From Takakia lepidozioides (Eukaryota > Plantae > Bryophyta): a stretch of DNA of 64,000 nucleotides. The stretch lies in assembly GCA_030704615.1 (NCBI GenBank), contig CM060734.1, positions 3,782,001-3,846,000 on the forward strand, read 5' to 3'. A program made the position numbers and the translations under genes. The notes beneath the pieces are model-generated. The model searched no databases and was not told the DNA's origin. It worked only from the letters and a program-made list of their open reading frames with translations. Shown here piece by piece: positions 8,150 to 64,000 of the stretch; position 1 is the first letter of the stretch, and every line of letters begins with the position of its first letter.

Positions 8150-8667
8150 AAAAAACGACGCGACTGCCGCATGGCGGTCCTTATATTTAAAAAAAAACCA
8201 AAAAAGGCGACCGCCTCTTGGCGGTCGCTGCATTTTTTAAAAAAATATTAAAGAAGCAACCGCCACATGGTGGTCGCTTTATTTATGAAGAAAAAGAAGC
8301 GACCGCCACTTGGCAGTCGCGTAATATTTTTTAATATACAAAAAAGAGTGATCGCTCTTGTGGCGGTCTCTTTATTTAAAAAAAAAATCCAAATTAGGGA
8401 ATATATTTTCTAAATAACAAACGCTTCATTTTAAAGAAAACAATTAGAAGCGACCGTCAATATGGGCGGTCACATGTTTTTTAAGGAATTATTAAATATT
8501 AATAATTTGCCACGTGTGTTTTACACCGTAGTTGTCATGTGATTAGAAAAGGTAGCAGTAAATCGTAAAAGTGAAATATAAAAAAATTACATGGATAAAT
8601 GTCTGGTTTCACGTCCGTCGTGACGTCTGATGTGTGAGCGCCACGTCACGTCAGGAATGATAACTAG
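8150..8667. repeat. Subterminal palindromic repeat array and end of a DNA-transposon-like element
   Basis: Repeated GCGACCGCC-N4-6-GGCGGTCGC hairpins in AT-rich spacers, as at 55380-55724. ACGTCACGTCA motifs and CTAG at 8664-8667 abut GEX2-like coding sequence. Confidence 0.7.
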
Positions 8668-18399: not shown

Positions 18400-18632
18400 C
18401 AACCAACATCTAGCCCAGTGGTAAGGGCACAAGCCGCCACACTATGGTTGTGGGTTCAAACCACATGGTGGATGTCATAAAGGTGTCCACCTTCCCACCG
18501 GAAGGCAGTAGCCCTTCGGGGTCAAGTGACAGCATAAGTTACGCTTGCTTTGGCAACGCGGTCACTTTACCCACGGGGCGTAGGTGTCCTATGCCATAAC
18601 CCAAATGGAGTCATTACCGTACCTCTATTATT
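18400..18632 (+). mobile_element. tRNA-derived SINE-like element with a LINE-related structured segment
   Basis: A-box-like TAGCCCAGTGG (18411) and B-box-like GGTTCAAACC (~18453), then GGCAGTAGCC...AAGTGAC...AGTTACGC shared with 38926-38988 and 42537-42632, and a short TATTATTA tail. Confidence 0.6.
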
Positions 18633-33998: not shown

Positions 33999-35094
33999 TT
34001 TTTCAAGTATTAAGTTGGGCTACTCCTTGTTGTTGCCAAAGAAAAAATTTGATGATAAGTGGAACAACCAGTGGGCTCATCTCTCGGGTCCTCCTATTGC
34101 TTGGAAGGCGGTGTGGGCTGACATTTGGAAGAAACACAGGGCTTCCAAAGTGACTGCCTTTTTGTGGAAGGTTGCTAATAGAATCCTTCCGGTGGCCTCT
34201 ATGATCTCTGATACACCTGATGCTTGTCCTTCCTGCAATCTGCAGTCTCCTGAAACTTTGGAGCACCGCTTGGTGGATTGCCCTTTAGCTCAATCTGTTT
34301 GGAGGAAAGCCTTCACTTTCAATTCTTTCTGGAATCCCAATCTCAATCACTCCACTTCTGCTCTGTTGCTGAATTGTACAGAGGGAAGTTCTTTCTGCTC
34401 ATGCCCTGTGTGGGAATCTTTAAGAGGGGTCATTCTTTGGAATATCTGGAAGATGCGATGTGAGGTCATCTTTCAAAATGTGAATCCATGTTTGCAGAAA
34501 GTGTTGTATAAGGCTCATTCAGACCTCGTGTCTGAAGCTCGCAAGGCGTGGCTTGTTATTGTGACAGCTCTTCCCAGGTGTAGTCAATCAAGAAGGGACC
34601 AGCTTCTTACCACATTTGATGACACATTGGGGAAAAGCAACATCTTTTGGAGAAGAGTATCAGACTCTAGGGTAAGGTGGATAGACACTCTCCCTTCCTG
34701 CTGGCAACACTATGAACTCGAAGGCTTTCCTCTGGAGGCTGAAGAAGAGATTAATTGGAGGCACAAGCGGTAGGAAAAGCAGATCAAGCACGCAACTTTC
34801 GATGCTCCAAAGCGTAAAAGGGGTAGTTCTTAGTCTGCTGCTTTCTTGTTATCGCTTGAGCCTTGCTAGTTCTCAAACCTTGGCACTCTAGCTGGCTGCA
34901 GCTATTCTAGCTTCTCTGCAGGATTACTCTGGCTCTGAAGTTCTTACTCTTATAGTCTCTCTTCTCACATCTTCGTTTTTTTGGCTCTGAGTGAACCTCG
35001 TTACTGAGTCCACCTTATGGCTCTTTGTAAGGTTATTTTTTCCTTACCTCCTTTTAATAAAATTCTCAGGAGAAAAAATAATAATAATAATAAT
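33999..35094 (+). mobile_element. 5'-truncated L1/Tx1-clade LINE (zf-RVT C-terminus, 3' UTR, (AAT)n tail)
   Basis: ORF 34015-34773 contains KVTAFLWKVANRILP...CPSC...ETLEHRLVDCP.A..VW and LWNIWKMRC. (AAT)n tail at 35077-35100; candidate TSD AATAATACTG at 33989-33998 and 35095-35104. Confidence 0.85.
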
Positions 35095-40319: not shown

Positions 40320-43030
40320 TGTGGAACCCCCGCGGACACTTACAAAAGTATATATAAGGAGTAGTAACCCCGAGAACGGTGCAAGCCCGTTGGTGACCAA
40401 AAACTAGTGAGTAAGCGTGCGAGCTGGAAAGCGACCAAGGTGTGGGGAGTTGTTCCGAATTGCCATCTATCAAAGGGAATTTCCACTGAGCCCCATAAGT
40501 AGAGGGTCGAGTGGGAGTGTGAGGGGGACCGTTATGCCCCGGTGAGGAGCCGAAGCTCCAAGTTGGCCCGACGGCCAGTTTGGGAGTTAGGCGCGCGCAT
40601 CAAAGCAAGTAACTATGACTTGACGGGGAGCTTACCGAAGTGAGATGCGCGAAACTTGGTATCAGAGCTTAGAGTTCAGTACGTGATCGTCCTTGAGATC
40701 GGCCTCACCATAGGGTCGGGCAAGACAAAGCGAAAGTGGAACGGCCCGAAAAATGATGATCCTGGTGAGCCCGGTAGGGGTGACGTGTCCCCGAAGCAGC
40801 AAATGGAAGAGGCGATTTATGCTTCTGAAAACGAGGCCGCTCAAGAACGGGAGGAATTTGGGGAGTCGGAGCCCGAGGACTTCCCAGAGGCTCCGCCAGA
40901 CCAACAGATGTCTCCCGTGCCAGCAGCCTTTTGGGAAGGGTTGTTGGCGCAGTTTGGCGGGACATTGAAAGACGTGATGAGGGCGGCTGATGCCACTTCC
41001 ACTAAGGCGAAGTTTAAGGTGAAGCCTAAGGAACCCGACACCCTCGAGGGTGTCCGAAATCGGAAGGCACTCAACACCTGGCTCTTGGAGCTGGAGCAGT
41101 ACTTCCGGGCGGCCAAGTTGAGTGACGAAGATCGGGTGGAAGTGGCTCCCACTATTTGAGGGGCTATGCTCAACAATGGTGGCAGAAGCGCCTTCATGAC
41201 CAAAAGCCAAACCTAGAAACCTTGAGCTGGAGTGGGTTCAAGGAACTTATGAAAAGACAGTTTGTGCCTCTCAACACGTCCTGGGCTCGCCCGGGACAAG
41301 ATGAGGAACTTGAAGCAAACGGATGACATTCAGGGATATATTCAGGCTTTCAATGTGTTGTTGCTCGAAGTCGCGGATATGGCGGAACCAGAAATGGTCT
41401 TCAACTTTGTGGCGGGACTGGCCCCATGGGCCATGCGGAAGTTGGAGGAGAGGCCACCAAAGACTTTGAACGAGGCAATTGAAAGGGCTGAATGTTTCTC
41501 GGATGTCCCTAGGGGCGAAAGACAGGGCCGTACGGAGCTGAACCATAAAAAGGTCCGGCGAGAGGGTGACTCCTTCCGACCGGAAAAGAAGTGGGATAGG
41601 CCACGCGGCGACAATAGCACATGGAAATCGAAGGGAAGGTCTTCACACGTCAAGGCGACGCCCGGTGCTCTGAAAGGCAAATCAGGTGCAGCGGCTTATG
41701 GCGGATAGATGGCGACCTTTGATAAGGTGTGCTTTAATTGCGGGGAGCCCGGGCACATTGCTAAGAAGTGCGCCAAACCCGACAATTGAACATGACTCGA
41801 GCGACAACGGAGTTGTCCGAATACTCCGTCAGCCGCTTGGTGGAGGCGGTGGTCGCCAAGACTGACAAGGTAGGCAACTACTCTTGTGAGTTGTATCAAG
41901 AGACGGGAGCCTTGTGTAAAGGGAGTCAGTTAATGTTCGTGAGCGGGATAATTTCCGGAACTAACGTGTCGTTGTTGGTAGACATAGGAGCGTCGCACTC
42001 CTTCATGACACCGGCAAAGGCAGGGAAGCTGGGACTCCCGACAAATGAAGTGGGGGGGGGGCTCCGTAAGGTGACTTACTTGGCCGGATGTACCCCTTTG
42101 CCATTAGATCCTTGAGCTGGGCCTTACTATTCGCAGATAAGAAGGATGGACGCTGCGGATGTGTGTCGATTACATGGCTCTGAATAATATGACTATAAAA
42201 AACCGGTACCTTTTGCCAAGGATCGACGACCTTTTCGATCGGTTGGCAGGAGCAAAGTATTTCAGCCGGATCGATTTACGCTCGGGTTACCACCAGATCC
42301 GGATAGCAGAAGGAGATTCGGGATCACAAAAGTGGAGTTCCTAGGGCATGTGATTACACAGGATGGAATCAAAATGGATGGCAGAAAGGTGAAGGCAATC
42401 TTGGACTGGGAATCTCCGACTTCGGTCCCGGGAGTGCGATCCTTTCTAGGACTCGCCTCCTACTACCAAAAGTATGTGAGAAATTTCGCCAAGATCGCGG
42501 GGCCGCTGTCAGACCTTCTGTGTAAGTCCAAGGTATAATAGGGTCCACCCCCGGAAGGGGGCAGTAGCCGAAAGGTGAAGTGACTCTTAGTTACGCCGGC
42601 TTCGACCGGAGTCTTCTCTCTCTCTCTCTCTCAGTCCAAGGTATGGGTATGGAACATTTTTTGTGGCCAAGCTTTTGCCGAGTTGAAGCAGCAGATGGCG
42701 GAAGCTCCGGTCTTGAAAATCACGGAGTTCGATCGTCCATTTGATATTCATACAGATGCATCGGACTTCGCAATCGGGGGTGTGCTCATGCAAGATGGAC
42801 GTCCAGTGGCTTACGAAAATAAGAAACTGAATGAAGTGGAGCGACGGAGGCCTACGCATGAGAAAGAAATTAAGACGGTGGTGCATTGCCTTGAGCTTTG
42901 GCGCCACTATGTTGGTTCCAACCTGGTGATGGTGTTCACAGACAATGTCGCAGTGAAGTACTTACCACACAGCCTAAGTTGTCCCACAAAACAACTTAGG
43001 TGGCAAGATACTTTGACCGTGTTCGACCGC
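40320..43030 (+). mobile_element. Degenerate Ty3/gypsy (chromovirus-type) retrotransposon: LTR, PBS, gag, PR, partial RT, RNase H
   Basis: PBS TGGTATCAGAGC at 40657; knuckle CFNCGEPGHIAKKC; protease LVDIGASHSF; [36 protein letters not shown]; RNase H TDASDFAIGGVL. Internal deletions, no integrase or 3' LTR; LTR start approximate. Confidence 0.88.
42537..42632 (+). mobile_element. 96-bp retroposed 3' tail of the RLE LINE family with a (TC)n tail
   Basis: Flanked by a 12-bp TSD AGTCCAAGGTAT (42525-42536 and 42633-42644); matches the reverse complement of 38926-38988. Confidence 0.88.
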
Positions 43031-45026: not shown

Positions 45027-45664
45027 GTGCTTACAGTTCCATGACCACATCTTCAAAAGTGGATTTGAGCTAAACATCTTCCTGGCAAACAGCCTGGAAA
45101 CATGTACATGACGGGCTGCCAGCCAGCTGATGCCAATCGAGATCGGCTGCTGCCCCAAGACCATGCAGACTCCTCATATGTTGGGCATGATTGTCCCCTT
45201 GAAATTGCTCTGGATTCCCCCTCAATAGATGATCATGTGGTGCTCACAGAGAAGGCGAAAGCCAAATTTCTGCAGTGGGTCGGCCATGTATTCTGGTCAT
45301 TACGGCATTCTCAACGCCGCACACGCATGCAACCAGCTCCTCTCAAAGTGGGAGCTCACTTGAAGACTGCACCAGCTAGGGTTTATGTCGAAAATATGCT
45401 CGTGTACCTTGCTACAGGTCTGTATAATCCCAAGGATTGGAAAATGTACATGGAGGATTGTCAACCAGTAGAGGCCAATTGGACGCTGCTCCACAACAAC
45501 GCAGATTCCTTCGTGATTGTTCCCTTGATATTGCTCCAGACTACCCCTTAATTGCTAGGTGGCTGACAAGACCAGCTGTGAAGATAGACAGTACCAGCCG
45601 ATGGAATGTGGATAAACCTTTCTACTTCAGCATGGAGACAAGCCATTTTGGTGAAAACCCCCAA

Positions 45665-46278
45665 GGATATTCTAAACGTGGGCAGGCTGAGGAGGCTTTT
45701 AAAATCTATAAGCAAATGCAAGGCAAAGGGCTATTGCCCGATCACAAGACTATGCTCACTTGCACCCTCAATGTGGGTGGTAGCCTAGGAACCCTGGAAA
45801 AGGGCAAAGAGATCCATGCCAACGTCCTGTATGCTGGAATTGCACGAGGGGTCATTCTGGAGATCGCCCTCGCTGACTTGTATGTAAAGTGTGGAAGCAG
45901 GAAGGATGCGCATCAAGTGTTTGCTAATATGGCGCACAGAAATGTGATATCATGGAGCGCTATGATTACCAGACATGCTCAGCAAGGGTGTGGCAGAGAT
46001 GCTTTGATTAAAGATGAGCAAATGCTTCAGGAAGGGGTAGCACCCAACGGAGTTACATTCTTTGGCCTTCTAAATGCTGGTGCCAGTATTGGACTCTTGG
46101 AAAAGGGCAAACAGGTCCATGCTAACACCCTGAAATCTGGTACTCAACCTGATATCATTATGGAGAATACCCGTGTTGACATGTACGCCAAATGTGGGAG
46201 TGTAGAGGTTGCACGCCAAATGTTCAATAATATTGCTCGACGGGATCTGGTCTCTTGGAACTCTAGGATCGCTGGATA
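45665..46278 (+). pseudogene. PLS-class pentatricopeptide repeat fragment
   Basis: LEKGKEIHA...LYVKCGS.KDAHQVFANM..RNVISWSAMI and VDMYAKCGSVEVARQMFNNI..RDLVSWNS.IAGY: about two P-L-S triplets. Confidence 0.85.
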
Positions 46279-48037
46279 CTGCCCCAGTAAGCCACCAGAA
46301 TACTTCAAAGTGGGACGTCATTGGCAGATTACACCAGCTGATTTCTCTGTTGGGAATTTGCCCGTGTATCTTGCAGAAGGGCCAAAGACGTCCTCAAATA
46401 CCAGACCAAGTGCATGTTGCTGCGAAAGATTTCACTCAGAGATACCCTCAGAGTGACGTGGCTGATGTAGTGGACCCTATTGGAGAATTCAGTTCCAAAT
46501 GCACTGTTTCAACAGGGCTCTTTCTTCCCCCGGGCTCTTCTTTCAAGTTGGCACTTACAATCACTACCACCTACTGCGGCTCCACTACCTGGATGGTGAT
46601 CTATAAGTCCACATTGGCAACATCAGGGCTCCCCCACGCACTAAGGATTCAGCTGATTACCATCTATGGCAGCTCCACTACCTGGACAGTCCTATATACA
46701 TATACACCAACGACATTAAGGCCTCCCGGAACCCAACACTCACAACAGCCGCTGCTTGGAGCTCTACCTACCCTGAAGCACTTGTTGAGATCTGCCACAA
46801 TGCTACCTGCTCCTTGGTCTGTACACAAAGCAGAGTGGACAGCACCCACTACTACCGGCCAACTCCCACAGCCCGTCGTGCAGGACAGATCTGGCTTAGT
46901 TCGCATGCCATCCGTAACTCTAGCAAGCTCATTCTCTCAACAACCCAGGCACATCACTCTGAGTTCTTACAGAGCTGGCGACAAGGGGCTACAACCCCCC
47001 ACACTCCCCCAACGATTCACCCCCTCTACTTGGAGTGCTCAGATTACCCCACCTCCACGCTTAAGTCTGCTATCCAGAGAAGGATGGAGAGCTATCCCAT
47101 CAAGCCCAGGCGTAATGCTGACACAACTGGCGAACACATACTCTGCTGCAGCCCACTCCTATGCCTGCCAGGAACACAACGTTGCACCAATGTGCGCCCC
47201 ACCATTCGAGCTTTTGGACCCCCCCAGGCCATCGTGTGGCTACTCTTTGGCATCAATCGCTCACCTCTGTGGGGTCTCTTCCTTTTGTGCTTCATATCAA
47301 CTGCTTGCTTCTTACATTACATATCAATAGCGTTACACCAATGATCTTACAGCTCATTTGCTTATTAAATGTGATGCTCCTAGATTGTGGTACTCAATTC
47401 ACATTATTTGATTATGCCCGCCTGGGTTATATCAAAGTCTGGCTCAAACCCAGCACACTACCCTCACATCACTCCCTCACACCGCTTACCCACACTACTT
47501 CCCACACTACTTCCCCCACACCTTCTCACAATGTTTTATGAAACTCTCTCATGCTATTATTACCCAAACACATCCTCTCACTCATAACCGACACCTCATC
47601 CAATTACAGGTCCCTTCATCCGTGCCTCTGGCCGAACTCATTCATCCGAGTATGTCGCCCATTTATCCTATTTCCCCCACTCTAATTAAAGCTATATTTC
47701 CCACCCACCATACACTCATATTAAGTTTTTACCAACCCCACCATATGAGCTCTCGCACAACAAACCCCTTCCATGGCCACCGGACGAATCCACACACTTA
47801 TCTAAACACAATAAAATCCCCCCCACACACACAAGCAACCAGCTCCACTCATACCCACTACGCTACCACCAAATCCATCCCCCTCATACACCTTTTTAAC
47901 AGCTACCCCCCCTTTCCCTCAAAATCCAACTTATAACCCACTCCCCACATGGGAGATATCACTAGAAACCTCTCGCATGTAAACATTCTTCTCACCATCC
48001 ACCATCCCACTTTAAGTCCTATAAACTTACCTGTGAA

Positions 48038-49144
48038 ATGCTTATACTACTACGTTGCGGCGACATCCACCCAAACCCAGGCCCCTCTACCATCATTAGC
48101 ATCATCAACAAGCTTTCAAAGGACCATAAAGACAGATATGCACTATATTTCCAAATAGACATTGTCTCACTCGTACCTGCATATCAACACCTTAGTGGCC
48201 ACTTCTCTCCCTTTCTCCCAAACCCTTCCACCAATAACCGCAAACCCACACACCCAATTGCCGCCTTTGGGCTCCATGCCTGCCAACACCCATTTCTAGT
48301 CAATGCCACCCATAAACTTAGCACATACCCCATACAACACCTCCTATTCTCACTAATCATCAACATCTCCCCAATACCCTCAATATGCAACGACTACTTT
48401 CGAACCCAACCAGACACACACATTTGTTCACTACTACAACAACTGCATGATTTACCCACACTACCTCATAGATATCTAGCACCCCCACACTACCTACACA
48501 ACCTCCACGAATCTCTCGGCCTACTACAAGCCAAACCCGGAGAAGTCCATAGGATTCTCGGCGAACACCTGACACACCCAACTGCAACGATACACTAGCT
48601 AGATACTATCGCCAACAAATTCCCATTCCTCTCCAAAAAAATTCTCACTGCAACCCTTCAAGCCAAGACAGGCATCCCTGGATATCAACCCCAGTCCATG
48701 ACACCGCCATCCACCACCCTATCCTGCATGCCCAGCTCCACCAGTGACCCACCTCCAACACCCCCTAGATCCCACAGTCCCCCACACACCTCCTCCTCCC
48801 AGCAAGCACACGCACTCAACATACTTACTTGGAATGTAGGATCACTTGCCACCAACATTCAAAGCCTTATCCATCTCACGGATTCTACACCCCCGCATAT
48901 CATCCTATTACAAGAAACTAGACTCAACACATACAACCCCAATAGTTTCTATATCAACAAACTACTTCCAGCCTACTATATGTTGTATGATAACTCATTC
49001 ACAGCCGTACAGTGCCTAACTAGACGCTCCGCGCCATACCATCCTACCCAGGGCGGGGTGGCTTTTGGTATCCTCCGCACACATCACTCCCCTAGGACCA
49101 CGGTCAAAATACCTGTCGCTCTCCCCCTCCGATCACACCTTTAA
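48038..49144 (+). mobile_element. LINE ORF N-terminal fragment: 2A-like peptide plus AP endonuclease start
   Basis: LLRCGDIHPNPGP (~48047-48085), then LNILTWNVGSL, PHIILLQETRL and GGVAF. C/A-rich coding strand like the RLE fragment; truncated by the MULE remnant. Confidence 0.75.
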
Positions 49145-50330: not shown

Positions 50331-50569
50331 TTAACTATAATGACATGCATCGATTTTCTATAGAGTAAATGAGACTCTCTCTGCTTCGTAAGTCGCGGTG
50401 AGGGGGCTGAGGACTTAGCGAGTTTTGCAAGTCAGATGCGACCTCCATCTCCATCGTCTTCCCTTCCCTCATCTACTCCGACGATTGCAGCCCCTCTTCT
50501 TTCATATTCCATTTTCTTTTTGTAAACATCCGCCCTCGCCGCCCCCTTTGTACATCGACACAGGAAGTA

Positions 50570-52657
50570 CATAACCCATGTTTGTGTTTGCAATGCGTGT
50601 GTGATCCTGGCAGCCCTGGAAAAGGGCAAAGAGGTCCATGCTGACATTGTCGAAACTGGAATCGTACCAGATGTTGTTTTGAACACTGCTCTGATGAACA
50701 TGTATGTGAAATGTGGGAGCATCGAGGATGGAAAGGGAGTGTTGGACAATATGGCCGAACGAGATGTGTTGTCTTGGACTGCGATGATCACAGCTTATAC
50801 ACAGCAGGGGCGCGGGATGGAGGCTTTGGATACCTATGAGCAAATGATGAGGGAAGGGGTGAAGCTCGACCAGATCACCCCAGGTTAGGTTTGCAAGGTG
50901 TGTGCAAGCCTAGCAGCGCTGGATAAGGGCAAGGAAGTCCATGAGGACATTGTCAAAGCTGGAATTTTACCAGATGTCCTTCTGAATAGTACCCTGGTGG
51001 ACATGTATGTTAAATGTAATGGCTGAACGAAATGTGGTATCTTGGAGCGGAATGATTGCAGGATATGCACAGCATAGGTGCGGGATGGAGACCTATGAGC
51101 AAATGTGTGGGAAGGGGTGAAGCCCAACCACATCACCTTTATTTGTGTCTGCAATGCGTGTGCAAGCCTAGCAGCCCTGGAAAAGGGCAGAGAGGTCCAT
51201 GGTGACATCATCAAAGCAGGAATTGAACCAGATATTGTTCTGAACAATACCCTCGTGGACATGTATGCCAATAATTATGGGTGCATCGAGGATGCAAAGG
51301 GAGTGTTCGACAATATGACCGAAGGAGATGTGGTGTCTTGTAACGCCATGATCACATGATATGCACAGCTTGGGGGCGGGATCGAGGCTCGGACCTGAGA
51401 TGCATACTGAATTCTGTAAGTTAGCTCGTTGGCTTCTGAAAGAGGATCAAGAGAGGGAGTCCATAATGCCTCTTCTAGCTCTTCTGGGCATGTGAAGATG
51501 CTTTGTGAGGTAGGCAGACTGAAAGAGGCTCTATAGACTTTAAACCAAGGAGCAATTCAGCAGATTCAGATATGTATATGGTACGATGTTTTGGATGAGC
51601 GAATGATGCACGAGGGGTGAAGCCGAACCACATCACGATTGTGGTTGTGTTTGCAATGCGTGTGCAAGCCTGGGAGCCCTAGAAAAGCATTTGCAATGCT
51701 TGTGCAAGCCTGGCAGCGCTGGAAAAGGGCAAAGAGGTGCATGGAGACATCATCAAAGCTGGAATTGTACCCAACGTCATTCTAAACACTGCCCTGGCAA
51801 CTCTGGACACTCTCTATTCGTACTAACTCTGCTTCATTACAACATAGACTTTTAAATATCCGAATCGATATATCTCTTGGTAATCCAAGGATTAATTCAC
51901 ACATAGAATTCTTATCTTCTCCATTTGTGCACATTCTCACTATCTCACGCAATTATAATTCTTCAATCATTGCATTTAGAATTGGATTTACATTTCATCA
52001 TTCCATTCTTCACACAGAACAAATTGAATTGAACTTTTTTTTTCTCCTTTTTCTCTTCTATTCATTCACAAACATTACATCACGATAACGCAATACTAAT
52101 CTACCATTGAGAAATAACTTTATCTTCTAGCACCCACTCACTCTACTCTGCTCTGCTCTGGAAGAGGTCCATGGTGACATCATCAGAGCTGGAATTGTAG
52201 CAAATGTCATTCTGAACACTGCCCTAGTGGACATGTATGCACAATGTGGGTGCATCGAGGATGCAAAGGGAGTGTTCGACACTATGGCTGAACGAGATGT
52301 GGTGTCGTGGAGTGCGATGCTTGCAGGGTATGCACAGCAGGAACGTGGGATGGAGGCTTTGGAGACCTATGAGCAAATGATGGGGGAAGCACATCATGTT
52401 TGTGTGCATTTGCAATGCTTGTGCAAGCCTGACAGCCCTGGAGAAAGGCAAAGAGGTGCATGGGGATATCATCAAAGCTGGAATTGTACCAAACGTCATT
52501 CTGAACACTGCCCTGGTAGCTCTAGAAAAGGGGAAAGATGTCCATGGCGACATCTTCAGAGTTGGAATTGTACCAGATTTCATTCTGAGCAATACCATGG
52601 TGGACATATTTGTAAAATGTGGGTGCATCTAGGATACAAAGGGAGTGTTCAATACTA
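50570..52657 (+). pseudogene. Cluster of degenerate PLS-class PPR repeats
   Basis: Repeated C.CNACASLAALEKGKEVHGDIIKAGI.P.V.LN.ALVDMY..CG.IEDAKGVFD.MAERDVVSW with stops and frameshifts; cut at 52658 by a DNA element. Confidence 0.88.
51808..52155 (+). mobile_element. Short retroposed insertion in a PPR repeat
   Basis: AT-rich segment ending in (CTCTG)n, flanked by TSD CTCTGGA at 51801-51807 and 52156-52162. Confidence 0.65.
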
Positions 52658-53319
52658 TCAGGGTTGCACACGCCAATGACGTCACGTCACGTCAGACCTG
52701 ACGCTAACGCGACCAACGTCACGTCAGTTTTGCCGAAAAATCGGTAAAACATGAGTTACGTGAAAAATATGTCACGTAGGTGGATACGTTGTATTCCAAG
52801 CGACACCTTGGCAAGTGAATGAATTGTTTTATAAATTACTCCATCCGCCAATAGTTGAGGTCATTTTTAAATCATTATTGTTAAATTGGTGCGACCTCCA
52901 AATGGTGGTGGTCGCAGAATTTATCTTATTTTTTAATAGTTGCGACCACCAGCAGAGGGGTTGTCGCAGCATTTTTTGTTTTTTAAAAATAGATGCGACC
53001 ACCAGCAGGGGTGGTCGCATTTTTTTCTTTTTTTAAACAGTTGCGACCACCGCTACTGGTGGTCGCACAATTTTTATTTTATTTGTAATAGGTACGACCA
53101 CCATCAGGGGGGTGGTCGCAACATTTTTCTATTTTTTAATATCTGCGACCATCAGCATGGGGGTGGTCGCAGCATTTTTCTGTTTCTTTAATAGGTGCGA
53201 CCACCGGCAGGGGGGTGGTCGCAGAATTTTTATTTATTGTTTTTAAAATATATATATTCTCTGTGACCACGAGCATGGGGGTGGTCGCAACATTTTTCTT
53301 TTTTTTAATAGGGATTGTT

Positions 53320-54170
53320 GGCGATTCTAGAATACCGGAGCGTTGGGAGCTAGCGGGAAAAAAACCCAAGTCCAAAAATCCAGAAAAGGCGTTGAGACAA
53401 CATAACGACGAGTGTTCGGTAGTGAAGTTCCAGCATCCGGGTGTTATTTCGTATTTTGCTATGAATGCACGTGAGGTAGAGGGTTACACTCGCTGGTGGA
53501 ATGGGGGGACAATACGCGACATGATGAACCTTGATAGAAAATGGGGCAACGATTTGGACAACAGGGTGATTTTGGAACAAAGGGGAACGGAAGCAGAGTT
53601 CCAAGAATACGATCGCTTGCTTCGTTTCCGAAAAGTGCGTAGTAAACTTGCATGGGCACTGGTGTGCATCATGGATATTGTCCACAAAAACGGTGTCATG
53701 CACAACGACTTGTCCCCCGATAACATCTTGTTGCATTTTCCAGATGGCACCGAGAAGATCAAAATTGGGGTGTGTGATTGGGGCTTAGCCACCCCATTGG
53801 GCATACGCAAAGCCTCGCCGTACCAGTTTGAAAACCAAGACAAGCTGGACCGGGAACTCGCGAAAAGATGGTGGGTGGAAAAAGATATTGCATCGGTTTT
53901 CAATGTGAATGTCACGCCCCCCCCCCCCCCCAGGACATGACGTCGAAGGCCTTTGCCGTTGGGAAGATAGCGGTACAAATAAATGACGGCGTTCATTATG
54001 ATCAAAGTATGTTCCAGGACCAATTTACGGGAGGTTATCGGCATTCAATGCTACAAAGGTTGTACGACAACAATAAGAATGAGAGAGTCACATTAGCCCA
54101 TGTAGTACTTCGGTTCATGGGCAAGCCATTCAATTGGCCTGAGCCGAAAGATGTATATAGGACGGAGTAG
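53320..54170 (+). CDS. Protein kinase-like domain (N-terminally truncated; frameshift in poly-C at 53917-53931)
   Basis: LAGKK (beta3 Lys), HPGVI, VHKNGVMHNDLSPDNILL (catalytic loop, ~53701) and VCDWGLA (DFG-like); the C-lobe continues in ORF 53868-54170. Confidence 0.75.
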
Positions 54171-54253
54171 ACCATAGTCTCGTAGATATGACATTTCTGG
54201 CGGTACAATGGTTCTTTTATGAAAACATAACTCAATTTTGATCGTGCATATAA

Positions 54254-54782
54254 TAAATAAAGTCCCATTGTAAATACTACATTGCATATGCTCGACCCTG
54301 GCTGTCATCGCAATATAAATGGTTTGTGTACTGGCTCACTGTTTATATTTGTAATGTTCCAAGGTTTCGGATAGGGTTATGAGAAAACGATGTATTAGTT
54401 CTGTAGGAGTTAGACAACAAACGTCTCCTCTCATTTAACTGTGCGACGCTACCATGAGAGGCATGGATCGGAAAGTAATAGGTACACATGTGACCTCCGA
54501 ACGTTTGATACTAGGTCTTTATTTAAACGTGCGGAGGTCGCATGTACACCTATTACTTTTTTATCCATGCCACTCATGGTAGTAGCGCACAGTTGAATGA
54601 GATATGGAACGTTTGTTGTCCAACTCCTATGAATCCAATATATCATTTTCTCAGTACCCTGTCAGAAACATTGAAACATTCGCAGTTACAAACAGTGCCA
54701 CAATACACGGCCGATTTTGTTGAAATGACATTTGTGAGGTTCGAGCGTATGCAATTTATTATTTACAACGGAATTTTATTTA
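54254..54782. repeat. Long imperfect inverted repeat (~260-bp arms, short loop near 54515)
   Basis: Paired blocks include CATGTGACCTCCGAACGTTT/AAACGTGCGGAGGTCGCATG, TCTCATTTAACTGTGCG/CGCACAGTTGAATGAGA and AGGAGTTAGACAACAAACGT/ACGTTTGTTGTCCAACTCCT. Confidence 0.85.
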
Positions 54783-54850
54783 CTCGGGGGGACCGGTACT
54801 GCTGTTGGAGCGCAACTGATGGTGCGAGTGGAGCTGTCATAACCAATGTC

Positions 54851-55207
54851 AACAATCATATTTACAGTAAGGTGTTTCATGCTATTGTTGTTCCTCTAGC
54901 TGAATTCTGTAGTACTCTTTTTGCTATTCTCATGTCAACGTCATCTGAGACTGTCATGTTCAAACGGATGTATCAGCCACCCCGGCCAACTTGCAGACTG
55001 CAGCCATGGCCCACCATAAATTGAATGAATTGGAGATTTTGTGCGAAGTTCCTGGTTTCATGTCCTTGGTGGCTGATACGGAATTCGGAATATGACAGTC
55101 GCAATGGACCTGATGTTGTTGGCATGGGAGTAGCAAAACGATTCCTAAATAATTCTGCTACATGAACATCGGCAGTATGAAACACCTTGCAGTACATATG
55201 ATTCTTC
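54851..55207. repeat. Second long imperfect inverted repeat (~135-bp arms)
   Basis: AAGGTGTTTCATGCT/AGTATGAAACACCTT, TTTGCTATTCTCATGTCAAC/GTTGGCATGGGAGTAGCAAA, GACTGTCATGTTC/GAATATGACAGTC and GTATCAGCCACC/GGTGGCTGATAC. Confidence 0.85.
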
Positions 55208-55724
55208 ATATTGTTTGCACGGATTATTTGTGTTTGTGCCTTCAAGTGGCGAACATTTCCGCCATGGTGCGGAAGACGTGCATTGGCCACATTAAACGGT
55301 TGATGTGATATCATTTCACAAATGTATCACATCGCATTTGTGAAAATGTTGCTTCATTTTAAAAAAATCAAAAAAAATAAGCGACCGCCAGCATTGGCGG
55401 TCGCTTCATTTTCAAAACATTTAGAATAAATAAGCGACCGCAACCATAGGCGGTCGCTTCACTTTCAAAAACTTTAAAAAAAATAAGCGACCGCCAACAT
55501 AGGCGGTCCCTTCATTTTTTAAAAATTAAAAAAAAATAAGTGACCGCCAACATAGGCGGTCGCTTCATTTTTAAAAAATTAAAAAAAAATAAGCGACTGC
55601 CAACATAGGCAGTCGCTTCATTTTCAAAATATTTAAAATATATAAGCGACCACCAACATAGGCGGTTGCTTCATTTAAGAAAAAAAAATAAAAAAAAAAT
55701 AAGCGACCGCCAACATAGGCGGTC

Positions 55725-56427
55725 TGTCGTGCGCATACATATCGCTACACAACTACATCGCTGTCCAAAACCACACAACACATGTGCACACCACACACTA
55801 GTATACCACTAGTCTACCACTAGTCCAACCACTAGTCCAACCACTAGGCTACAACTAGTCAGTCACTAGGCTGCCACTACGCTGCCCACTATGGCAGTCA
55901 CTAGTCCACACAATAAAGAGGAAGAATACAAGCACAAGCTCATGCGAGCTCACAAAGCTGAAGCATAAACTCAGGCATATATAACCTCATCACTCAAATA
56001 CAAGTCAAGCCAAGTGCACCCCACGCCATGGGGAATCCACACTACGGCGCCATAGCTAGGCGCGGTGAGGCTCAACTCGAGAAAGATGAGCCTCCCGCGC
56101 TTGCCGTGAAGATAACCACTCCAGGGCCTAAATCTGCCTTGACCCCTGGATTGACACTTGGGCCAATCCCAAATGTCAATATGTAAAAGCTAGCTATTTC
56201 CTAGCTAGTTTCACACTAGTGGTAAAATAACTTGACAGCTGTCGTGCGCATACATATCGCTACACAACTACATCGCTGTCCAAAACCACACAACACATGT
56301 GCACACCACACACTAGTATACCACTAGTCTACCACTAGTCCAACCACTAGTCCAACCACTAGGCTACAACTAGTCAGTCACTAGGCTGCCACTACGCTGC
56401 CCACTATGGCAGTCACTAGTCCACACA
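55725..56427 (-). repeat. 3' LTR with A-B-A structure (188-bp unit A at both ends)
   Basis: 55725-55912 appears identical to 56240-56427. On the minus strand the PPT-like AGGGGGGCGAT (56428-56438) precedes TGTGTGG and the LTR ends ...GCACGACA. A TATA-like TTATATATG lies in B (~55976-55984). Confidence 0.85.
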
Positions 56428-56687
56428 ATCGCCCCCCTAGCTGGTGCTTAGGTCCCTCTAAGTCCAGGTAGCCACAAGATGTGATAGTGACCATAGCCTC
56501 ACTAAGTCCTCCACCACTATCCCTACTACACTCAAACTCGATAGATCAAGAGGCCGGGTGCAAGAGTTGCCCCATCGTTAGTCGCCGTCTTGCAACCTGT
56601 GAACTTGAGCTTGGGATCTCATGTATTGACTCCTATGAGCTTGGCCTCCCATGTCTTGTTAGCTGCCTCCAGTCATGTCCACTACCA

Positions 56688-57950
56688 CTATCCCAAGCAG
56701 TGTGGACACAACCAATCTCCGTCAGGAACCTTCTCAAGGGGTGGTGTCAAGCATCCCATATGCCAACCCCTTGAGCACCGATCACACACCAGCATGGTGG
56801 CTGCCCCTTTGGCAGACCCACAGAGCATGCACCTCAAACCTGCAGGTACCACTGCCAAGTTTGGGTCAACTCTGCCATCGACATTGGGAAGGTGACATGG
56901 CGCACAATTACGCACATGGTCTTTCCAAGTCATGCCATCCCGACCCTCTAAGATCAGGACCCCTGAGGGCAACACCTCTCGAACCCTCAGAATAACACGC
57001 CCTGCAGTAACATCCAGAGTCGTAGGAGCAGTCTGCTGCAAATAAACATAGTCACCAGGGCTAAACCTCCGAACCCCAGGACGATATCCTCCACCACGTA
57101 TAGTGGCATACCTCAACGTATCACGGTGTTGTGCAATGGCAAGGTTCTCAAAAGCCATGGGCATGACTTTCTTGAACAACTCTGCACGCTGATCACATGC
57201 ACGTACCCACATGTCCGGATCGTCAAGGTTAAGGACTTGAGCAGTGTCCCTACGAATGGCTGCAGGCAAATCCGGCTCTCGGCCAAAGAGAAGGAAATAT
57301 GGTGAGAAGGAGGCAAGTGATGCTTGTTTGCTGAACCTGTAGCCCATGGCTAACCAAGGAACCTGAAGATCCCAATCTCCTAGGTGTCCCTTCTGCAAGC
57401 CATACTTGCGCAAACCCCTCTTCACCGTCTGAACAACTCTCTCTGCTAAGCCATCGGCCTCAGGATGATCCCGAGAAGTGGTGCGGTGGTCTATCAAGGC
57501 TTTATCACACAAAGCCTGAAACTCCCCCAAGAACTCTCTCCCTTGGTCCGTGAGTACCTCAGCTGGAGCACCAAATCGGCTAAGCACACGATCCAAGAAT
57601 GCATACGCAGCCCCCTCACTAGCCTTGTCAGGCAATGGAACCAACTCAATCCACTTGGAGAAGTGCTCCACCATCACCAACACATATCTGTGGTGGCGCA
57701 TAGTCAGTGGCAACGGTCCTGCGAAGTCAAGACTCCACCTGTAGCCCAATCCCATGATTGGTAAAGGATGCAACTGTGGTGTAGGGGCGTTGAATGAAGC
57801 ACGCACCCTGTCACACACCATGCACCTAGCCACAAATGTTGCACCTCTGTATGCATACCACGCCACCAATACTGCCCTTGCAGTAAACTGTGAGTGCGTC
57901 GCACTCCAAAATGCCCCAACTCCTCATGGGCATGCCGCACTAACCGTGCA
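56688..57950 (-). CDS. Integrase with a C-terminal PHD finger
   Basis: HEELGH...CMVC, WSLDFAGP, LTDQGREF, LAERVVQT and FSPYFLLFG. C4HC3 finger CMLC-X11-CDRC-X4-HMGC-X14-CPHC with PDGDW at 56697-56831. One frameshift near 57835. Confidence 0.92.
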
Positions 57951-58339
57951 CGCTGTGTGGGGTGAGGCACAATCCTCACCCGACCATCCTCCCACACTCG
58001 AAGTAGGTGTATCCCCTCCCACTTGAACCTCTTGGCTCGTTGCAGGATCCGATCCCTCTCCCTGGCAGTCACAATGGCTGCCGTGTCTCCCGTGCGGAGG
58101 TAGTCCAACACAGCCGAATCCTCATGTATATCTCTGGCACCACCTAGCTCATCACTAGCCTCAGGGTCCTCAGACACTCCGTCTACAGTCATCCCTGTTG
58201 TAGGTCCAATCTGACCTCCCGATGCCAAGATACACAAAAATGCAGATGCGTGCCATCCCGGCACCATCTCCTCGTCCGTCTCACCATGCCACCGAGCTCC
58301 AGTGTCATCCTGCTGGCTCATGCATGGATTGCGACTCAA

Positions 58340-59662
58340 TCCATCCGCATCCCGATTGACCAAACCCGGTCGATGCACAACCTGAAAGTCATACTCCTGG
58401 AGTATAAGTGCCCACCGTGCAAGCTTCCCCGTAAGCTTGTCTGACTCCATCAACCACTTGAGTGGCTGGTGATCCGTGACAAGGGTGAAAAGATTGCCGT
58501 ATAGATAGCACCTGAAGTGTGCCACGGCCCACACTGCAGCTAAGCACTCTCCCTCATATGAGCTGTACTTAGCCTCTGCAGCGTTGTTCGAGCGGCTAGC
58601 GTAAGCCACTACGAACTCTCTTCCCTCATCATCCACCTGTGTGAGCACCGCTCCAAGCCCCAGCATGCTCCAATCCGTATGCAGCTGAAAGGGACGCCCC
58701 CTGATAGGTCGTCTCAAGATAGGCGCCGAGGTCAACCTCACCTTGAGCTCTTGAAAAGCTCGTTCCTGCTCATCTTCCCACTGCCACTCCTGGTCCACCT
58801 TGGTCAGCTTGGTTAGAGCCTTTGCAATGGTACTAAATCCCTTGACAAACCGTCTATAATAGTTTGCCAACCCCATGAAAGCTCGAACTCGGCTCACATC
58901 CGTGGGGCGTGGAATTTGTGCAATGGCCTCTACCTTAGTCTGCTGTACCCCCAATCCTCCAGGATATATCATGTGACCCAGATACTCAATCTGGTTGTGG
59001 AAAAACTTGCACTTCCCCGGATGCAACTTCAATCCGTGCGCTCTCAAGCGCTCCAATACCACCTGAAGGTGTCTCTCATGCTCCTCCATCGTAACACTAA
59101 AGATGATGATGTCATCTATGTAGCACCGAGCAAAGTCCACCCCTGCTAGAATCCTATCCATGACTCTCTGAAACTCTGCAGGAGCATTCTTAAGCCCAAA
59201 TGGTAAGAACCGCCACTGATATAGGCAATCCTTGCCGTGCTCATTGATCCCCCAGAATGTCGTCTTCTGCTTGTCCGCCTCCTTGATTGGCAACTGGTGA
59301 TATCCGGATCGTAAATCCAAAGTGCTAAAGGCCTTAGCATGCCCGATGGCATCAAAGATCTCCTCTGGTGTTGGCATGGCATACTTATCGGACTTGGTCT
59401 GACGATTTACAGGCCGGTAATCACCGCACATACGTCTCTCCGTCCAATTGCCATAGACATCCTTCTTGGCTGGCATCACTGTGGCTGAAGCATACTCTCC
59501 ACCAGAGAGCTCCACCAAACCTGCCTCCCAGAGATCTTGAGTCCTCATCTGAATCAAAGACCTCTCCATGTCACTGTATCTATAGGGTCTCCGAAAGATT
59601 GGCGTGTCAGTGGCCAACTCAATACGGATCTCTTGACCCTTCAGTGCTCCCAAGTCCTTCAA
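58340..59662 (-). CDS. Reverse transcriptase and RNase H of gypsy copy 2
   Basis: [67 protein letters not shown] and TDHQPL. Confidence 0.95.
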
Positions 59663-60109
59663 ACTGAAGGCAAAGCAATTCCTGTAAGCCCTCAGGAACC
59701 GCCGTATACGTCGTCTCTCTCCTCCGGTGACAATGGGTCCAATGTCAGGCTCCCAATTGTCCTCCGTAACTACAACCTTAAGTCCAGTGGGCTTAGAGGT
59801 AGAGGACGCGTCCCGTGGTTGCTATGCTGCAACCTCTTGAGCAGTACTCCCTACCTGCTCAGTCAATGACAAGGTATCATCCTGCCCCATCATCTCATCC
59901 TTGAGGACCTCCTCAACTCGAGAAGAATCCCCAACCTCATCCATCACAGCCGCCTTGGCTGCCAACTCCCTCTGAACCTCGAGCACCTCCCACGTGTGCC
60001 ATGGATGCATGCACCCCGTGGTCCTCATATGCTCGCCCCCACTCACTGCCTGTACCGTCTCGGTAGGCAGAGAGACCATTGAGGGAAGTGTATTCCGCAC
60101 TCTGCGTTG

Positions 60110-61080
60110 CTCAGCTAGAGCCAAGCTGATAATCCAGGTCAAGCAATTGAGATCCATTGCTTGCCCCAACACTTGACGACGTGATGCCTCAGAAAGAGAC
60201 GACACCGCCGTGGTACCAGTGGTAAAACCCATTGCCCGCTCACGCTCGTCAGCATTAGGCTCCACTAACTGCTGCAACTGAGCATCCCACAGGAGGCCAG
60301 GTCCACTATCCCGGAAAGCATGCGATCCTGGGAAGCTGAGCAGTGTAGGTAATGCTGCTCGTGGTTGACCCACCTTGTTGACCACTGCCAAAGGCGAACG
60401 GTCATCGTGTCTCACACGTTGAGACTGCCTCCCTGTGTCCAGAATGTTATCCACTGTGAGATGTGCTGGCCGCTGCACCCCATCAAATGCACGCTTGAGC
60501 AGTGCGGGTGGCATCATGTTAGTCCACCATAGCCGTGGACGATGAGCCCGTGACCCCACTGTAGCTGCATCTAGCAACACTGCTGACCCAAGCCACGACC
60601 GGACTTGATGCACACTGGCCATCACCCTGGCCCGAGAATCGCCCATCAGTGGCACATTCTCCAAGATGTATGCTGGAGATACAGCTTGATGAAGCTGCAA
60701 GTGGCGCAAAACCCGCACCATCTCCCAAAACAGACCCGACCTCGAGTCTCGCAATCCATTGCCATGCCCGGCTGATGAATGCCCTTGGCAGGGCCAACCT
60801 GCCACTACCAGATCAATGGAGCCAACCCGCTCCAAATCCTGCGCCCCCAGCAACGAAATGTCTGCTGGCAAGGCCTGCTGATATCCACGAATTGCAGACA
60901 CCGACAACAACTCAGGGTACCGCTGCACCAACTGAGCAACATGGCGAAGTGAAACGCGTCGTGCAGTCTCATCCCTCTCCACATACAGGTAACGCCGAAC
61001 TCGTACACCTGCCTGTAACACAGCAGCCAATCCGGTGCTGATCCCGCCAAACAAGTCCAGAAGACAAATGCCTTCATCCG
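60110..61080 (-). CDS. C5 cytosine DNA methyltransferase domain (DNMT3-like, non-permuted) within the polyprotein
   Basis: Uninterrupted frame with motifs I LLDLFGGISTG, II YVERD, III ADI, IV DLVVAGWPCQGHS, VI YILENV, VIII AHRPRLWWTN, IX ERERAMGF and X RRQVLGQAM. Confidence 0.93.
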
Positions 61081-61149
61081 GAGACTGCCACACAATAGGT
61101 GTGGTGTCCAATGGAGACAATTGAGGTGGTCCTGGTGCAATCCCCACAC

Positions 61150-63991
61150 TCTCCTCCTCTCTGACGGTACAAAAGCCTCCACCCAGGCTTGTTGCACCCG
61201 TCGATCAGCATCCCGCTGCAAATCCTTGCTCGTGCCCCACAATGGAGTCTGAGCAACCATGGTAGGCAACTCCGCCATACCATACATGTCATCCTGCTCT
61301 CCCGGAGGTGGTACATCCTCTGAATGAGCATTGCCCTCAAGCAACTCTCTAGGCCAACTCACTGCCGCTGTGAATGCTGCTAGTGTCGGCATCTTGCCTC
61401 GCTGGGCAACCGCAACTCCTCCTATGAACGTCACAGGGAGCTGCACACGCCGGCCCTCCCCTGACTGCCATGCAGGCCTATAGGAAGCTGACTCCTCCCA
61501 AAAATCCAGGGTGAAGCCCATGGGGTACAACACTGCCCCACCAACCAGGACATCGTATGAGACTGCGTCTGTCACAATGGCCTTGGCTCGCATCACTGAG
61601 CCATCTGTAGGGTGATCCGGCCGTAGTCTGATAGCCAACTCATGCCGTGTCATGCCCCGAGCCTGCTCCGATCCTCCCAGAGACGTCTGTATCTGGAAAG
61701 GACAAGGCTCCATATCCGCCTCCGTGAGGCCCAAGCCTGCAATAGCAGCTCTGCCCAGCATCAGTGGCTGAGCTCCCGAGTCCAACAAGACTCGCAGTGG
61801 CCGGTACCTCTTGCCTGCCGGTCCACTCAAACAGAAAATGCCATCCTGGTTGTCTAACATGACAACTCCAGGTGTCACCATGGCGCGCTCAATGGCTGGC
61901 CTAGCTGGCAGCTCCATCAACCTGGCAGCTGCAGCTTGCCATGGCGCCGCCGTGGCAGTCTTGACCCTCAAATCCGAGGATCCCTCCGGCACTACACCTC
62001 CCACTATCTCCGCAGAAGATGAAGTAACCTCCCCACTCTCACAGAGTGTAGCTGCCAGCCTGAACACCTCAGCTGGTCTTACCCCGGCGTCGCAATCATG
62101 GTAGCCGAGAACAATGGAGCCTGGCACACAGATGTGGCCGCTCCTAGCAGCACACTAGCTGCCGTAGCCTTGGCAACACTAGGTAGTGGTGCTACCCGTG
62201 TAGCTCTCCCCAATGGCATAGTAACCTCCGCCTCGGTAATAGTCGGGCGAGAACTAGGTGCCATGGATGGCGTCGACACTGTCTCCGCCAATGTGAATGA
62301 CTGAGGAAGCCTAGCCTGACGGCTTGCCTCCCCACGCTGTGGATCCAACTCCACCTCTGCACCTCGTGGCTCAGGAACTCGTGCTGCTCCTCGAGTCACG
62401 GCTGCAGCAGACTCCACCTGCACTAGTGGTAGTGCTGCTCCACACATGAATCCCATGCCTCCCATATCTCCTCCCTCAGGAGCAGGAGGTGGACCATCCG
62501 GCCTTAGAGCCGGTACCACCTGAGCTGTAGCCATGGCAGCGAGCCTCTGCTCTAGCTGCTGAAGCCGGTTGGCCATGCCTTGGTCAACACCCTGACCTCC
62601 GCGTCCTTGGCCACGTTGAGCTTGCCCTTGGCCTGCACCTCGTGGCTGGCCACCTCGTCCTCTCTGGGCTGCTCCACCTCGCCCCCGGCCACCATTGTTC
62701 CCTTGGAACTGGCCTGGGCGCAACTCAGGATGCAAACCATAACACTGGGCCTCTCCATGCCCGTGCTTGCCACAATGCCCACACTGCAACTGTGCAGGCT
62801 GTGCATGTGCCGACCCTTTGCCTCCCTCTGGGCAATCCTTCTTGACATGGGGTCCTCCACATGTCCAGCACACCACATCCGCCCGTTGTTGGCCAGCAAA
62901 TGAAGGGAGAGACCCCTGCATTGAGGTCCTCTCTGCCCTTCCCTGAGCTTCACCTGAGCCCCCTTGTTGCCTTGAGCACGTTGAGGTAGTGGTTGGCTAG
63001 GAGCACCACTACCCCGTGGTGTCTCCTTAGCAAATCCCACCATGACCACTCGTTCCTCCACCATGTTGAGCTCTATCCGCTCTGCCAGCAAAAACACATT
63101 TGCTAAGGTGGGTTGGGCCGCTTGTAGGAGAGTTGCATCCCGCACCCTTCTCCTCAGCTCCTTGTCCAATATCCCATACCAGAATTGGACTGCCTGAGCT
63201 TCCGTAACCCCTTGGGTTACATTTATCAAGCGCCTCATGCGAGTGAAAGCCTCCCTCAAGCTCTCGGTCGGCTTCCGTTGGAACTCTTGCAAGCTCCGCA
63301 ACTTCTCTGTCCTCACCCCTTGGTAGTTCCCTCTCAACTCTTCGAAGAACTCCACAACAGGGTTGAAGGCAGGCACGGGTGCTAGTGCTGGTGCGGTAGT
63401 GGCTTGGGTGGACGTCGTAGCTACTGTACCACCAGTCCCACTGCTGCTTGCTGAAGCTGCCGGTGCAGCGGCAGGTGTAGCCACTGCCCTCGTGGCTCTA
63501 GTGCCCCTAGTGATGGAGACATAGTCGGGTGACCAGTACATCCTCCACTCCTCGATCTCAACCTCATGCCCCCGCCTGAACTCATGGTAATCATCCATAG
63601 GCGGCCCCTCAAGGTGCTGAAACAGCCCTTTCCATGCCATGAACGGCGTAAATAGTTGTGGATTGCGCATTTGCTGCAAATCACACCAACTATCAAACTC
63701 TTGGATAAAATCATCCAACTCAATGGTGCCCACCGCCCCAGAGTACCTTCGTGGCCCCTTGGTAGCTCCATACATCTCCTCCATTGTGTCCCACAACAAT
63801 GGCAAAGAAACAACTTGCACCGCCGGTATGAGCCCTCCTGATTCACAATCCGAATCAGAACCTTCCGTGGAAGACACAGGAGGTGAAGGTGGCCTAAACC
63901 GCACACCTCGTCTCGTGTACCCACTAGTATCGCTAGTGCTCGAACCGGCACTGTCCCCAGCAACTAGTGGCACCTCCGTGTTGACACTCAA
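61150..63991 (-). CDS. Gag, zinc knuckles and aspartic protease of gypsy copy 2 (frameshifted)
   Basis: ORFs 62552-63991, 62079-62921 and 60805-62127 join into one protein through 1-nt shifts; CWTCGGPHVKKDC, CGHCGKHGHGEAQC, LLDSGAQ and DVLVG. Confidence 0.88.
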
Positions 63992-64000
63992 CCGGTCATG

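Follow-up and report, generated by a model that had tools for sequence, protein, structure and literature searches.

A PHD finger at the end of the integrase in a Ty3/Gypsy retrotransposon of Takakia lepidozioides that carries a DNMT3-like methyltransferase

Introduction

An integrase that ends in a PHD finger raises the question of what the finger does for its retrotransposon, and the question takes a particular form when the same element also encodes a cytosine methyltransferase (DNMT). Such an element lies in a stretch of 64,000 nucleotides from Takakia lepidozioides (assembly GCA_030704615.1, contig CM060734.1, positions 3,782,001 to 3,846,000 of the forward strand), referred to here as the window. 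A preliminary description of the window proposed that the element had rebuilt, from separate parts, the combination of methyltransferase and H3-tail reader known from DNMT3, and that this might steer integration to heterochromatin. PHD fingers are described as widespread in retrotransposons and have already been proposed as targeting modules (PMC6673714, 10.1101/2021.11.30.470311, PMC9940879). The role of retrotransposon-encoded DNMTs is itself an open question, according to the discussion of PMC5890265.

Results

Layout of the element and its surroundings

The element, whose features are collected in Table 1, has reverse transcriptase (RT), RNase H and an integrase with a DDE triad in the Ty3/Gypsy order. 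Among solved structures the family profile matches Ty3 best. The integrase core (PF00665) spans residues 61-154 of its ORF (E 6.7e-14). Upstream of RT is a stretch read as cytosine methyltransferase (59822-61204), and on the Gag side the element runs past the end of the window at 64000. The protease regions of two relatives, P0186 and P0203, homologous to that of the window, give weak matches to protease families.

The copy in the window is broken by four frameshifts: one near 57836, which splits the zinc-binding N-terminal part of the integrase, one near 61160, just upstream of the DNMT, one near 62081 in the protease region, and one near 62921 in Gag. Many sister contigs differ at these places. 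The family is very abundant, with 98,028 contigs of one sequencing run matching the element. Between sister copies, the variants listed (40 of 581) include 24 in the integrase, 19 of them synonymous, and 3 in the PHD finger, all synonymous.

Table 1. Coordinates of the element and of its target sequence within the window
Feature	Position	Strand	Basis or remark
Target sequence, probable non-autonomous DNA transposon	52650-55724	.	Inverse arrays, kinase fragment, hairpins; transposon identity inferred
Repeat B2, 3' end of the element, ends CGACA	55725-55913	-	Repeat comparison
Repeat A2, 326 bp	55914-56239	-	B1-A2 junction is the palindrome GACA-GC-TGTC
Repeat B1, 189 bp	56240-56428	-	100% identical to B2
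Polypurine tract	56429-56438	-	Same motif in related loci
Integrase ORF, 411 aa	56688-57923	-	ORF list and Pfam; D66, D126, E161
C4HC3 PHD finger, integrase C-terminus	56697-56831	-	Pfam and ligand inspection
Beta-stranded integrase C-terminal domain, then conserved linker to PHD	56892-57050	-	Predicted structure model
RT, RNase H and first half of integrase zinc finger	57704-59821	-	Pfam, ORFs
In-frame stop TAG CAA CCA between DNMT and RT	59816-59824	-	CAR-YYA context, predicted readthrough signal
DNMT3-like cytosine methyltransferase	60064-61090	-	Pfam PF00145, motifs
Aspartic protease region, LLDSGA at 61771-61788	61161-62154	-	ORF and motif
Gag, two zinc-knuckle-like motifs	62079-64000	-	PF03732 weak, E 0.002

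Another copy of this family, further decayed, occupies 1-3632 on the minus strand, where it is cut by the start of the window; it extends from Gag to DNMT, and identity over 3.5 kb is 85%. It shows no 5' A repeat that would correspond to A2 of the element. Elsewhere the window holds a series of minus-strand ORFs with weak Filamin/GEX2-type Ig-like repeats (11131-20056); a LINE endonuclease and reverse transcriptase, LINE fragments and another Gypsy gag (20475-24113 on the plus strand, 33994-34773, 41253-41708 and 48599-49144); and degenerate arrays of PPR genes (45428-46456 and 50500-52680, plus strand).

The PHD finger

The last domain of the integrase ORF matches the Pfam PHD family (PF00628) over residues 365-409 (E 1.4e-10; 41.5 bits, cut-off 24), and the ORF ends two residues later. 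All eight C4HC3 ligands are present in the window copy (C365, C368, C380, C383, H388, C391, C406 and C409), and the motifs quoted in the preliminary description match, confirming that a canonical C4HC3 finger closes the integrase.

That description also placed the finger where chromoviruses have a chromodomain. By position the claim stands, the finger being C-terminal: no chromodomain family matches the window at E<=0.01 in Pfam, and none appears in the domain annotations of the listed homologues or in 13 proteins that were rescanned, which include 5 of the 12 relatives (see below) without an intact finger. Positional equivalence is as far as the claim goes. In a predicted model of the integrase, built on 81 sequences, the finger is confident (block pLDDT 83-92). 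Because the model can be superposed on the C-terminal domains of retroviral integrases as far as residue 318 or so, the finger lies beyond the integrase's own C-terminal domain, as an addition behind a complete integrase.

Distribution of the finger and the methyltransferase

To remove the bias of a query that contains the finger, relatives were collected with a PHD-free integrase query, the best 150 of 47,291 matches yielding 134 informative relatives, whose sequence extends far enough past the integrase. In 122 of these the finger is intact, in 9 it is partial (by eye) and in 3 absent. It is also present in all 120 of the longer homologues listed (120 of 418 matches, PHD being part of that query). 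Among DNA loci, which come mostly from one family and were ranked with a PHD-containing query, the finger is found in 65 of 66 with room for it, DNMT in 32 of 38, and both in 24 of 29. Proteins give the same picture, with the two domains together in at least 55 of 120. The co-occurrence that the preliminary description proposed to look for is therefore widespread.

An integrase tree (121 rows, quick search) divides the relatives into two groups split at SH-aLRT 99: a short-tail group, to which the window element belongs, and a long-tail group with the named chlorophytes. In the window's group DNMT precedes RT; chlorophyte-type members have it between RNase H and integrase (an order seen in 32 of 120 proteins). 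The finger is always on the integrase in both. Finger and integrase core are conserved to about the same degree: mean identity is 0.51 for the finger vs 0.49 for the core, and pN is 0.25 vs 0.22 (four loci, with synonymous sites saturated). Among named relatives the nearest come from Marchantia, Sphagnum and Coleochaete, and others occur in chlorophytes; no match among the relatives listed is named as Klebsormidium nitens, and the viral contigs searched contained no relative of the element. The PHD finger defines a large green-lineage clade of Ty3/Gypsy elements.

Several Marchantia polymorpha genes annotated as hypothetical (Mp4g09160, Mp8g17980, Mp6g11220 and others, P0191-P0202) are Gag-protease-DNMT ORFs of this family, which is therefore present in a model plant. 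Members of the chlorophyte-type group extend beyond the finger, with a Tudor-like domain in 72 of 82 (found with a profile for which 42 of them served as training set; PF21743 matches weakly) and an amino-methyltransferase fold in 43 of 82 (M.TaqI, Z 14.1, rmsd 2.9 over 158 aligned residues), whose motifs DPFxG and SPPF/SPWF are often degenerate. Residues 424-766 of P0070 and its relatives are an example, and named matches include Chromochloris, Pleodorina and Volvox. This tail is absent from all 38 members of the window's group. One further protein, P0238, has RT, a Dam domain and DNMT within a single ORF and resembles the dual-methylase elements of a 2026 preprint.

The methyltransferase and a conserved stop

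The DNMT that the preliminary description took for granted is present: it matches PF00145, and its best solved relatives are DNMT3A (E 1.6e-11). Motifs I, IV (PC), VI (ENV), VIII and X occur in normal order, non-permuted and intronless, and the domain shares 74% identity with a protein of Marchantia polymorpha. The catalytic PC motif is PC in 50 of 98 aligned relatives and EC in 35.

DNMT and RT share a reading frame, split by TAG CAA CCA (59824-59816, minus strand), a stop that separates Gag-protease-DNMT from RT-RNaseH-integrase-PHD and thus stands behind the DNMT, not between gag and protease. In 668 contigs of one run every variant at 59816-59826 stays below 2%, while variation is 20% at 59827 and 10% at 59828. 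All 27 loci that cover the junction have a stop there, 25 of them in frame with both domain matches; their junction sequences are TAGCAACCC (19 loci), TAACAACCC (3), TAGTAACCC (2), TAGCAACCT (1), TAGCAATCA (1) and TAGCAGTTA (1). Decay of the window copy, considered as a source of the stop, was rejected on the grounds of this invariance among host copies and of the stop in 27 of 27 loci.

The stop-bearing loci represent four lineages, counting that of the window. Exact CAR-YYA contexts occur in three (the window, L029 and L030), whose linkers align neither with one another nor with the main family. That family supplies 25 of the 27 loci and has CAA-CCC, not an exact CAR-YYA. Tobacco mosaic virus has CAR-YYA at its readthrough stop (PMC2754532), and leaky stops between gag and pol are rare in retrotransposons (PMC3441728). 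In the window the first Met after the stop is residue 85, within the region homologous to the RT of relatives. TAG CAA CCA is best described as a stop in a context of the readthrough type, its leakiness being predicted. Several observations count against leakiness: no stable RNA structure was found 3' of the stop (z -0.56 vs shuffles); in the largest family the context is inexact and an ATG usually lies two codons past the stop, which makes reinitiation possible there; and three proteins, P0186 (2,811 aa), P0012 and P0014, have no stop and run from DNMT to PHD in a single ORF.

The preliminary description saw in the two domains a rebuilt combination of writer and reader. In a coupled pair of this kind the finger would dock on H3K4me0 chromatin and bring or activate the DNMT3-like enzyme at the insertion site, as the ADD domain does in animal DNMT3. 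The co-occurrence counted above fits such a pair; where DNMT directly precedes the integrase in one ORF, a chain of DNMT, integrase and PHD could persist, and in the window's group a readthrough product would hold both domains before cleavage. Against it, DNMT and finger are separated in the window element by the conserved stop and about 1,100 residues (RT, RNase H and integrase), with no reader adjoining the methyltransferase in one chain as an ADD domain does; the protease motif LLDSGA is intact; and DNMT occupies two positions in the clade, the finger never any but the end of the integrase. The finger is kept, moreover, in 5 of 82 chlorophyte-type members without DNMT between RNase H and integrase (in which an upstream DNMT is possible). 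Correlations of pairwise distances (Spearman, 91 sequences) are 0.41 for integrase and DNMT, 0.20 for integrase and PHD and 0.12 for PHD and DNMT, the last matched in 10 of 300 permutations; in this test, a weak one on a short domain, the finger appears to follow the integrase more than DNMT, with no sign of special coupling. Cellular DNMT3s of plants and algae have no ADD domain (PMC12344493), and therefore nothing is being rebuilt. The idea of a rebuilt reader-writer pair is weakened by the stop, the intervening domains, the protease and the separate positions of DNMT, and I consider it unlikely.

Split ends and the insertion site

In the window the terminal repeats stand in the order B-A-B, and the matching 5' copy, A1, lies outside it. 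A1 is seen in two related loci, L002 (1676-10805) and L045 (2684-11887), which are complete, with the DIRS-like order A-coding-B-A-B and 4-bp target duplications. Their ends are TGTCA and (C/T)GACA, and the internal B/A palindrome joins the two, which suggests that the ends may be cut by the DDE integrase from an internal or circle junction. No tRNA primer site is apparent after A1. A 191-bp repeat pair was also considered as the LTRs of an ordinary element and as a miniature element; both readings were rejected in view of the A-B-A-B layout in L002 and L045.

The end of the element at 55725 interrupts an array of 53-bp repeats (55304-55724); a second array, in inverse orientation, lies at 52919-53310. 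The insertion had been described as lying inside another transposon. The interrupted array resembles the subterminal array of a non-autonomous DNA transposon, which is consistent with that description in part; no transposase was found for the target element, and the other side of the insertion is outside the window. The target element contains a protein-kinase fragment (53140-53940) and long hairpins (54254-54782 and 54841-55216), with PPR fragments adjoining, and its repeat unit recurs near 8.2 kb (8118-8391). CpG is undepleted in it (o/e 1.05 vs 0.3-0.5 elsewhere). A search of 52600-57000 with Rfam gave only sub-threshold hairpin matches.

The nested position had further been said to fit a steering of integration to heterochromatin. 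The window is rich in repeats (LINE, Gypsy), so nesting is expected by chance, and a single insertion site neither supports nor opposes chromatin targeting. At 14 related loci the target-side 4-mers are varied, with no sequence preference, and the flanks are AT-rich and CpG-poor (as seen without a background set), 10 of the 14 matching another locus and several being the same site twice.

What the finger could bind

Residue roles were mapped by alignment to KDM5A PHD1 (10.1101/715474). The A1/T3 pocket of KDM5A (L309, V330, P331, G333 and W335) is kept entirely, as L378, V399, P400, G402 and W404, and so is the essential R2 aspartate (D312, here D381). The cage position for methylated K4, which I take to be two residues before the PHD histidine, is G386 and not Trp. 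The principle of the cage Trp is set out in PMC5415848. The acidic contacts to K4 and R8 are gone, D292, E305/D306 and D315 of KDM5A being replaced by A361, A374/A375 and S384. Across 120 relatives the eight ligands are found in 118, D381 in 112, the pair of A1-pocket residues in 117 and a cage Trp in none; pocket and R2 aspartate are near-universal in both groups of the clade, while in the window's group 8 of 38 members have the acidic wall, vs 68 of 82 in the other.

The solved relatives of the finger, among 60 of 83 matches listed, are KDM5A/B PHD1, CHD4, PHF12, ATXR5, DPF, BAZ2A/B, PHF21A, AIRE, UHRF1, ORC1B and their kin. The nearest among them are readers of the unmethylated or R2-anchored H3 tail, a preference that 10.1101/715474 and PMC5415848 document for a part of them. 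Loss of the acidic wall makes binding by BAZ2A 2- to 17-fold weaker, and some K4me0 readers have no such wall (PMC5415848). By residue comparison, then, the finger likely binds the H3 N-terminus and is unlikely to prefer K4me3. Whether the window copy selects K4me0 is uncertain, because its acidic K4/R8 contacts are absent. The earlier assignment as an H3-tail reader is upheld in part: pocket, R2 aspartate, lack of a cage Trp and kinship with unmethylated-tail readers argue for it, whereas strong selectivity for K4me0 is not to be expected of the window copy.

That 30 of 38 members of the window's group have lost the acidic wall could also mean that the finger there has become an interaction or structural module, contacting the intasome, Gag, a host factor or an H3-like peptide, with no meaningful function as a histone reader. 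Atypical PHD ligands are reported (PMC10124903). The surface for the H3 N-terminus (A1 pocket and R2 aspartate) is kept nearly everywhere in both groups, however, and I find this account, too, improbable.

A last account begins from the family profile, which also matches the PHD of rice EHD3 (9vno, E 1.4e-13). H3K4me1 marks gene bodies in land plants, and a finger that preferred this mark, or gripped nucleosomes generically, would bind H3 without avoiding genes. The missing K4-selective acids, the description of a plant reader named EHD3 as H3K4me1-specific (PMC13022364) and the lack of sequence preference at the 14 target sites accord with this, but with a cage Trp in 0 of 120 relatives and unmethylated-tail readers as the closest solved relatives among the matches listed it is highly doubtful.

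Discussion

A proposed division of labour

The explanation I favour, and judge somewhat more probable than its negation, is that the PHD finger belongs to the integrase as a fixed module at its C-terminus, likely a tether to the free, unmethylated H3 N-terminus, and that the DNMT is a separate matter. The finger would tether the integration complex to nucleosomes by way of H3 A1-R2-T3, probably weakly and, in the sub-clade of the window, with only moderate selectivity for K4. Unmethylated H3K4 is not exclusive to heterochromatin; the effect to be expected is therefore avoidance of active promoters, insertions being biased away from those trimethylated at K4. For a PHD-bearing Gypsy element of Chlamydomonas, intergenic insertion is 2.6 times that expected by chance, to which selection may contribute (PMC9940879). 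In the literature searched I found no test of a retrotransposon PHD steering integration.

On the favoured explanation Gag-protease-DNMT would be made in bulk, and RT-RNaseH-integrase-PHD only through leaky readthrough of UAG. The protease would then free DNMT and integrase-PHD as separate proteins, a step that I infer from the conserved stop and the intact protease motif. The DNMT, packaged at an abundance like that of Gag, would methylate the element's own cDNA with no guidance from the finger. Self-methylation of cDNA has been proposed for DIRS elements (PMC5890265). For the DNMT of KnitGypsy-Dnmt3 no activity was seen in yeast, a result that its authors call inconclusive.

A fuller scheme can be offered only tentatively, in which an ancient clade of green-lineage Gypsy elements would follow an epigenetic programme in two tiers, governed by recoding during translation. 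Through the leaky UAG, particles would receive as much DNMT3 as Gag, for methylation of the cDNA in advance; the rare readthrough product would be a PHD-guided integrase that cuts the ends from the B/A palindrome; and the chlorophyte tail would add a Tudor domain and an adenine methyltransferase, so that a single polyprotein would contain two readers along with two writers. The stop and the geometry of the split ends are the less expected features of these elements; the finger itself is an expected add-on. Given the conserved stop behind it, DNMT should be made in large excess relative to integrase. Such an imbalance would point to methylation of cDNA or of particle contents, and the clade offers PHD together with DNMT in Marchantia and in chlorophyte models.

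Comparison with known systems

Gypsy-DNMT3 elements have already been published, and so, in a 2026 preprint, has the combination of chromodomain and DNMT. The nearest described system is KnitGypsy-Dnmt3 and the Gypsy-DNMT3 elements of streptophytes (de Mendoza et al. 2018, PMC5890265), which share with the window element the Gypsy domains, a non-permuted DNMT3-like domain and split repeats in the order A-coding-B-A-B. There DNMT is in the Pol ORF, whereas the window element has a conserved stop between DNMT and RT. The text and three supplement files of that paper make no mention of a PHD finger, though its Figure 4c may show one. In the parts of the literature available, a PHD on Gypsy-DNMT3 elements, the stop after DNMT and the PHD-Tudor-methyltransferase tail of chlorophytes were not found; Figure 4c of the 2018 paper or the supplements of the preprint may show them. 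The available parts of the REXdb survey (PMC6317226) do not mention PHD, and those of PMC8226300, PMC9977147, PMC3350952 and PMC2774666 have nothing on an integrase-terminal PHD.

Two elements of Chlamydomonas, Gypsy-7a_cRei (PMC9940879) and REM1 (Perez-Alegre 2005, as cited in PMC2774666 and PMC6673714), are likewise green-lineage Ty3/Gypsy elements with a PHD proposed to lessen harmful insertions. Compared by description only, they differ from the window element in that no DNMT is listed for Gypsy-7a_cRei in the available account, and that the integrase of REM1 is truncated, lies in the reverse frame and carries a chromodomain. EpiLTRs (bioRxiv 10.64898/2026.05.21.726589) are LTR elements that also join a histone reader to a cytosine methyltransferase. 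They combine a chromodomain, DAM and a DNMT sister to DNMT4, while the window element has PHD and a DNMT3-like enzyme, with neither a chromodomain nor, in a search with the profile of the tail methyltransferase, a match to an adenine methyltransferase in the window.

Among cellular proteins, the fingers of KDM5A/B PHD1, BAZ2A/B and ATXR5 share with that of the window the C4HC3 spacing, the A1/T3 pocket, the R2 aspartate and the lack of a cage Trp; unlike them, the window finger has no acidic wall and no N-terminal Asp. Chromoviruses (PMC6317226, PMC3350952) provide the closest parallel in architecture, with a histone reader appended behind the C-terminal domain of the integrase. The window element differs from them in its PHD and its split terminal repeats, and its ORF ends two residues past the finger, with no chromodomain. 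The chromovirus chromodomain reads methylated H3K9, a positive mark of heterochromatin, whereas the finger of the window element would read at most the absence of methylation at K4.
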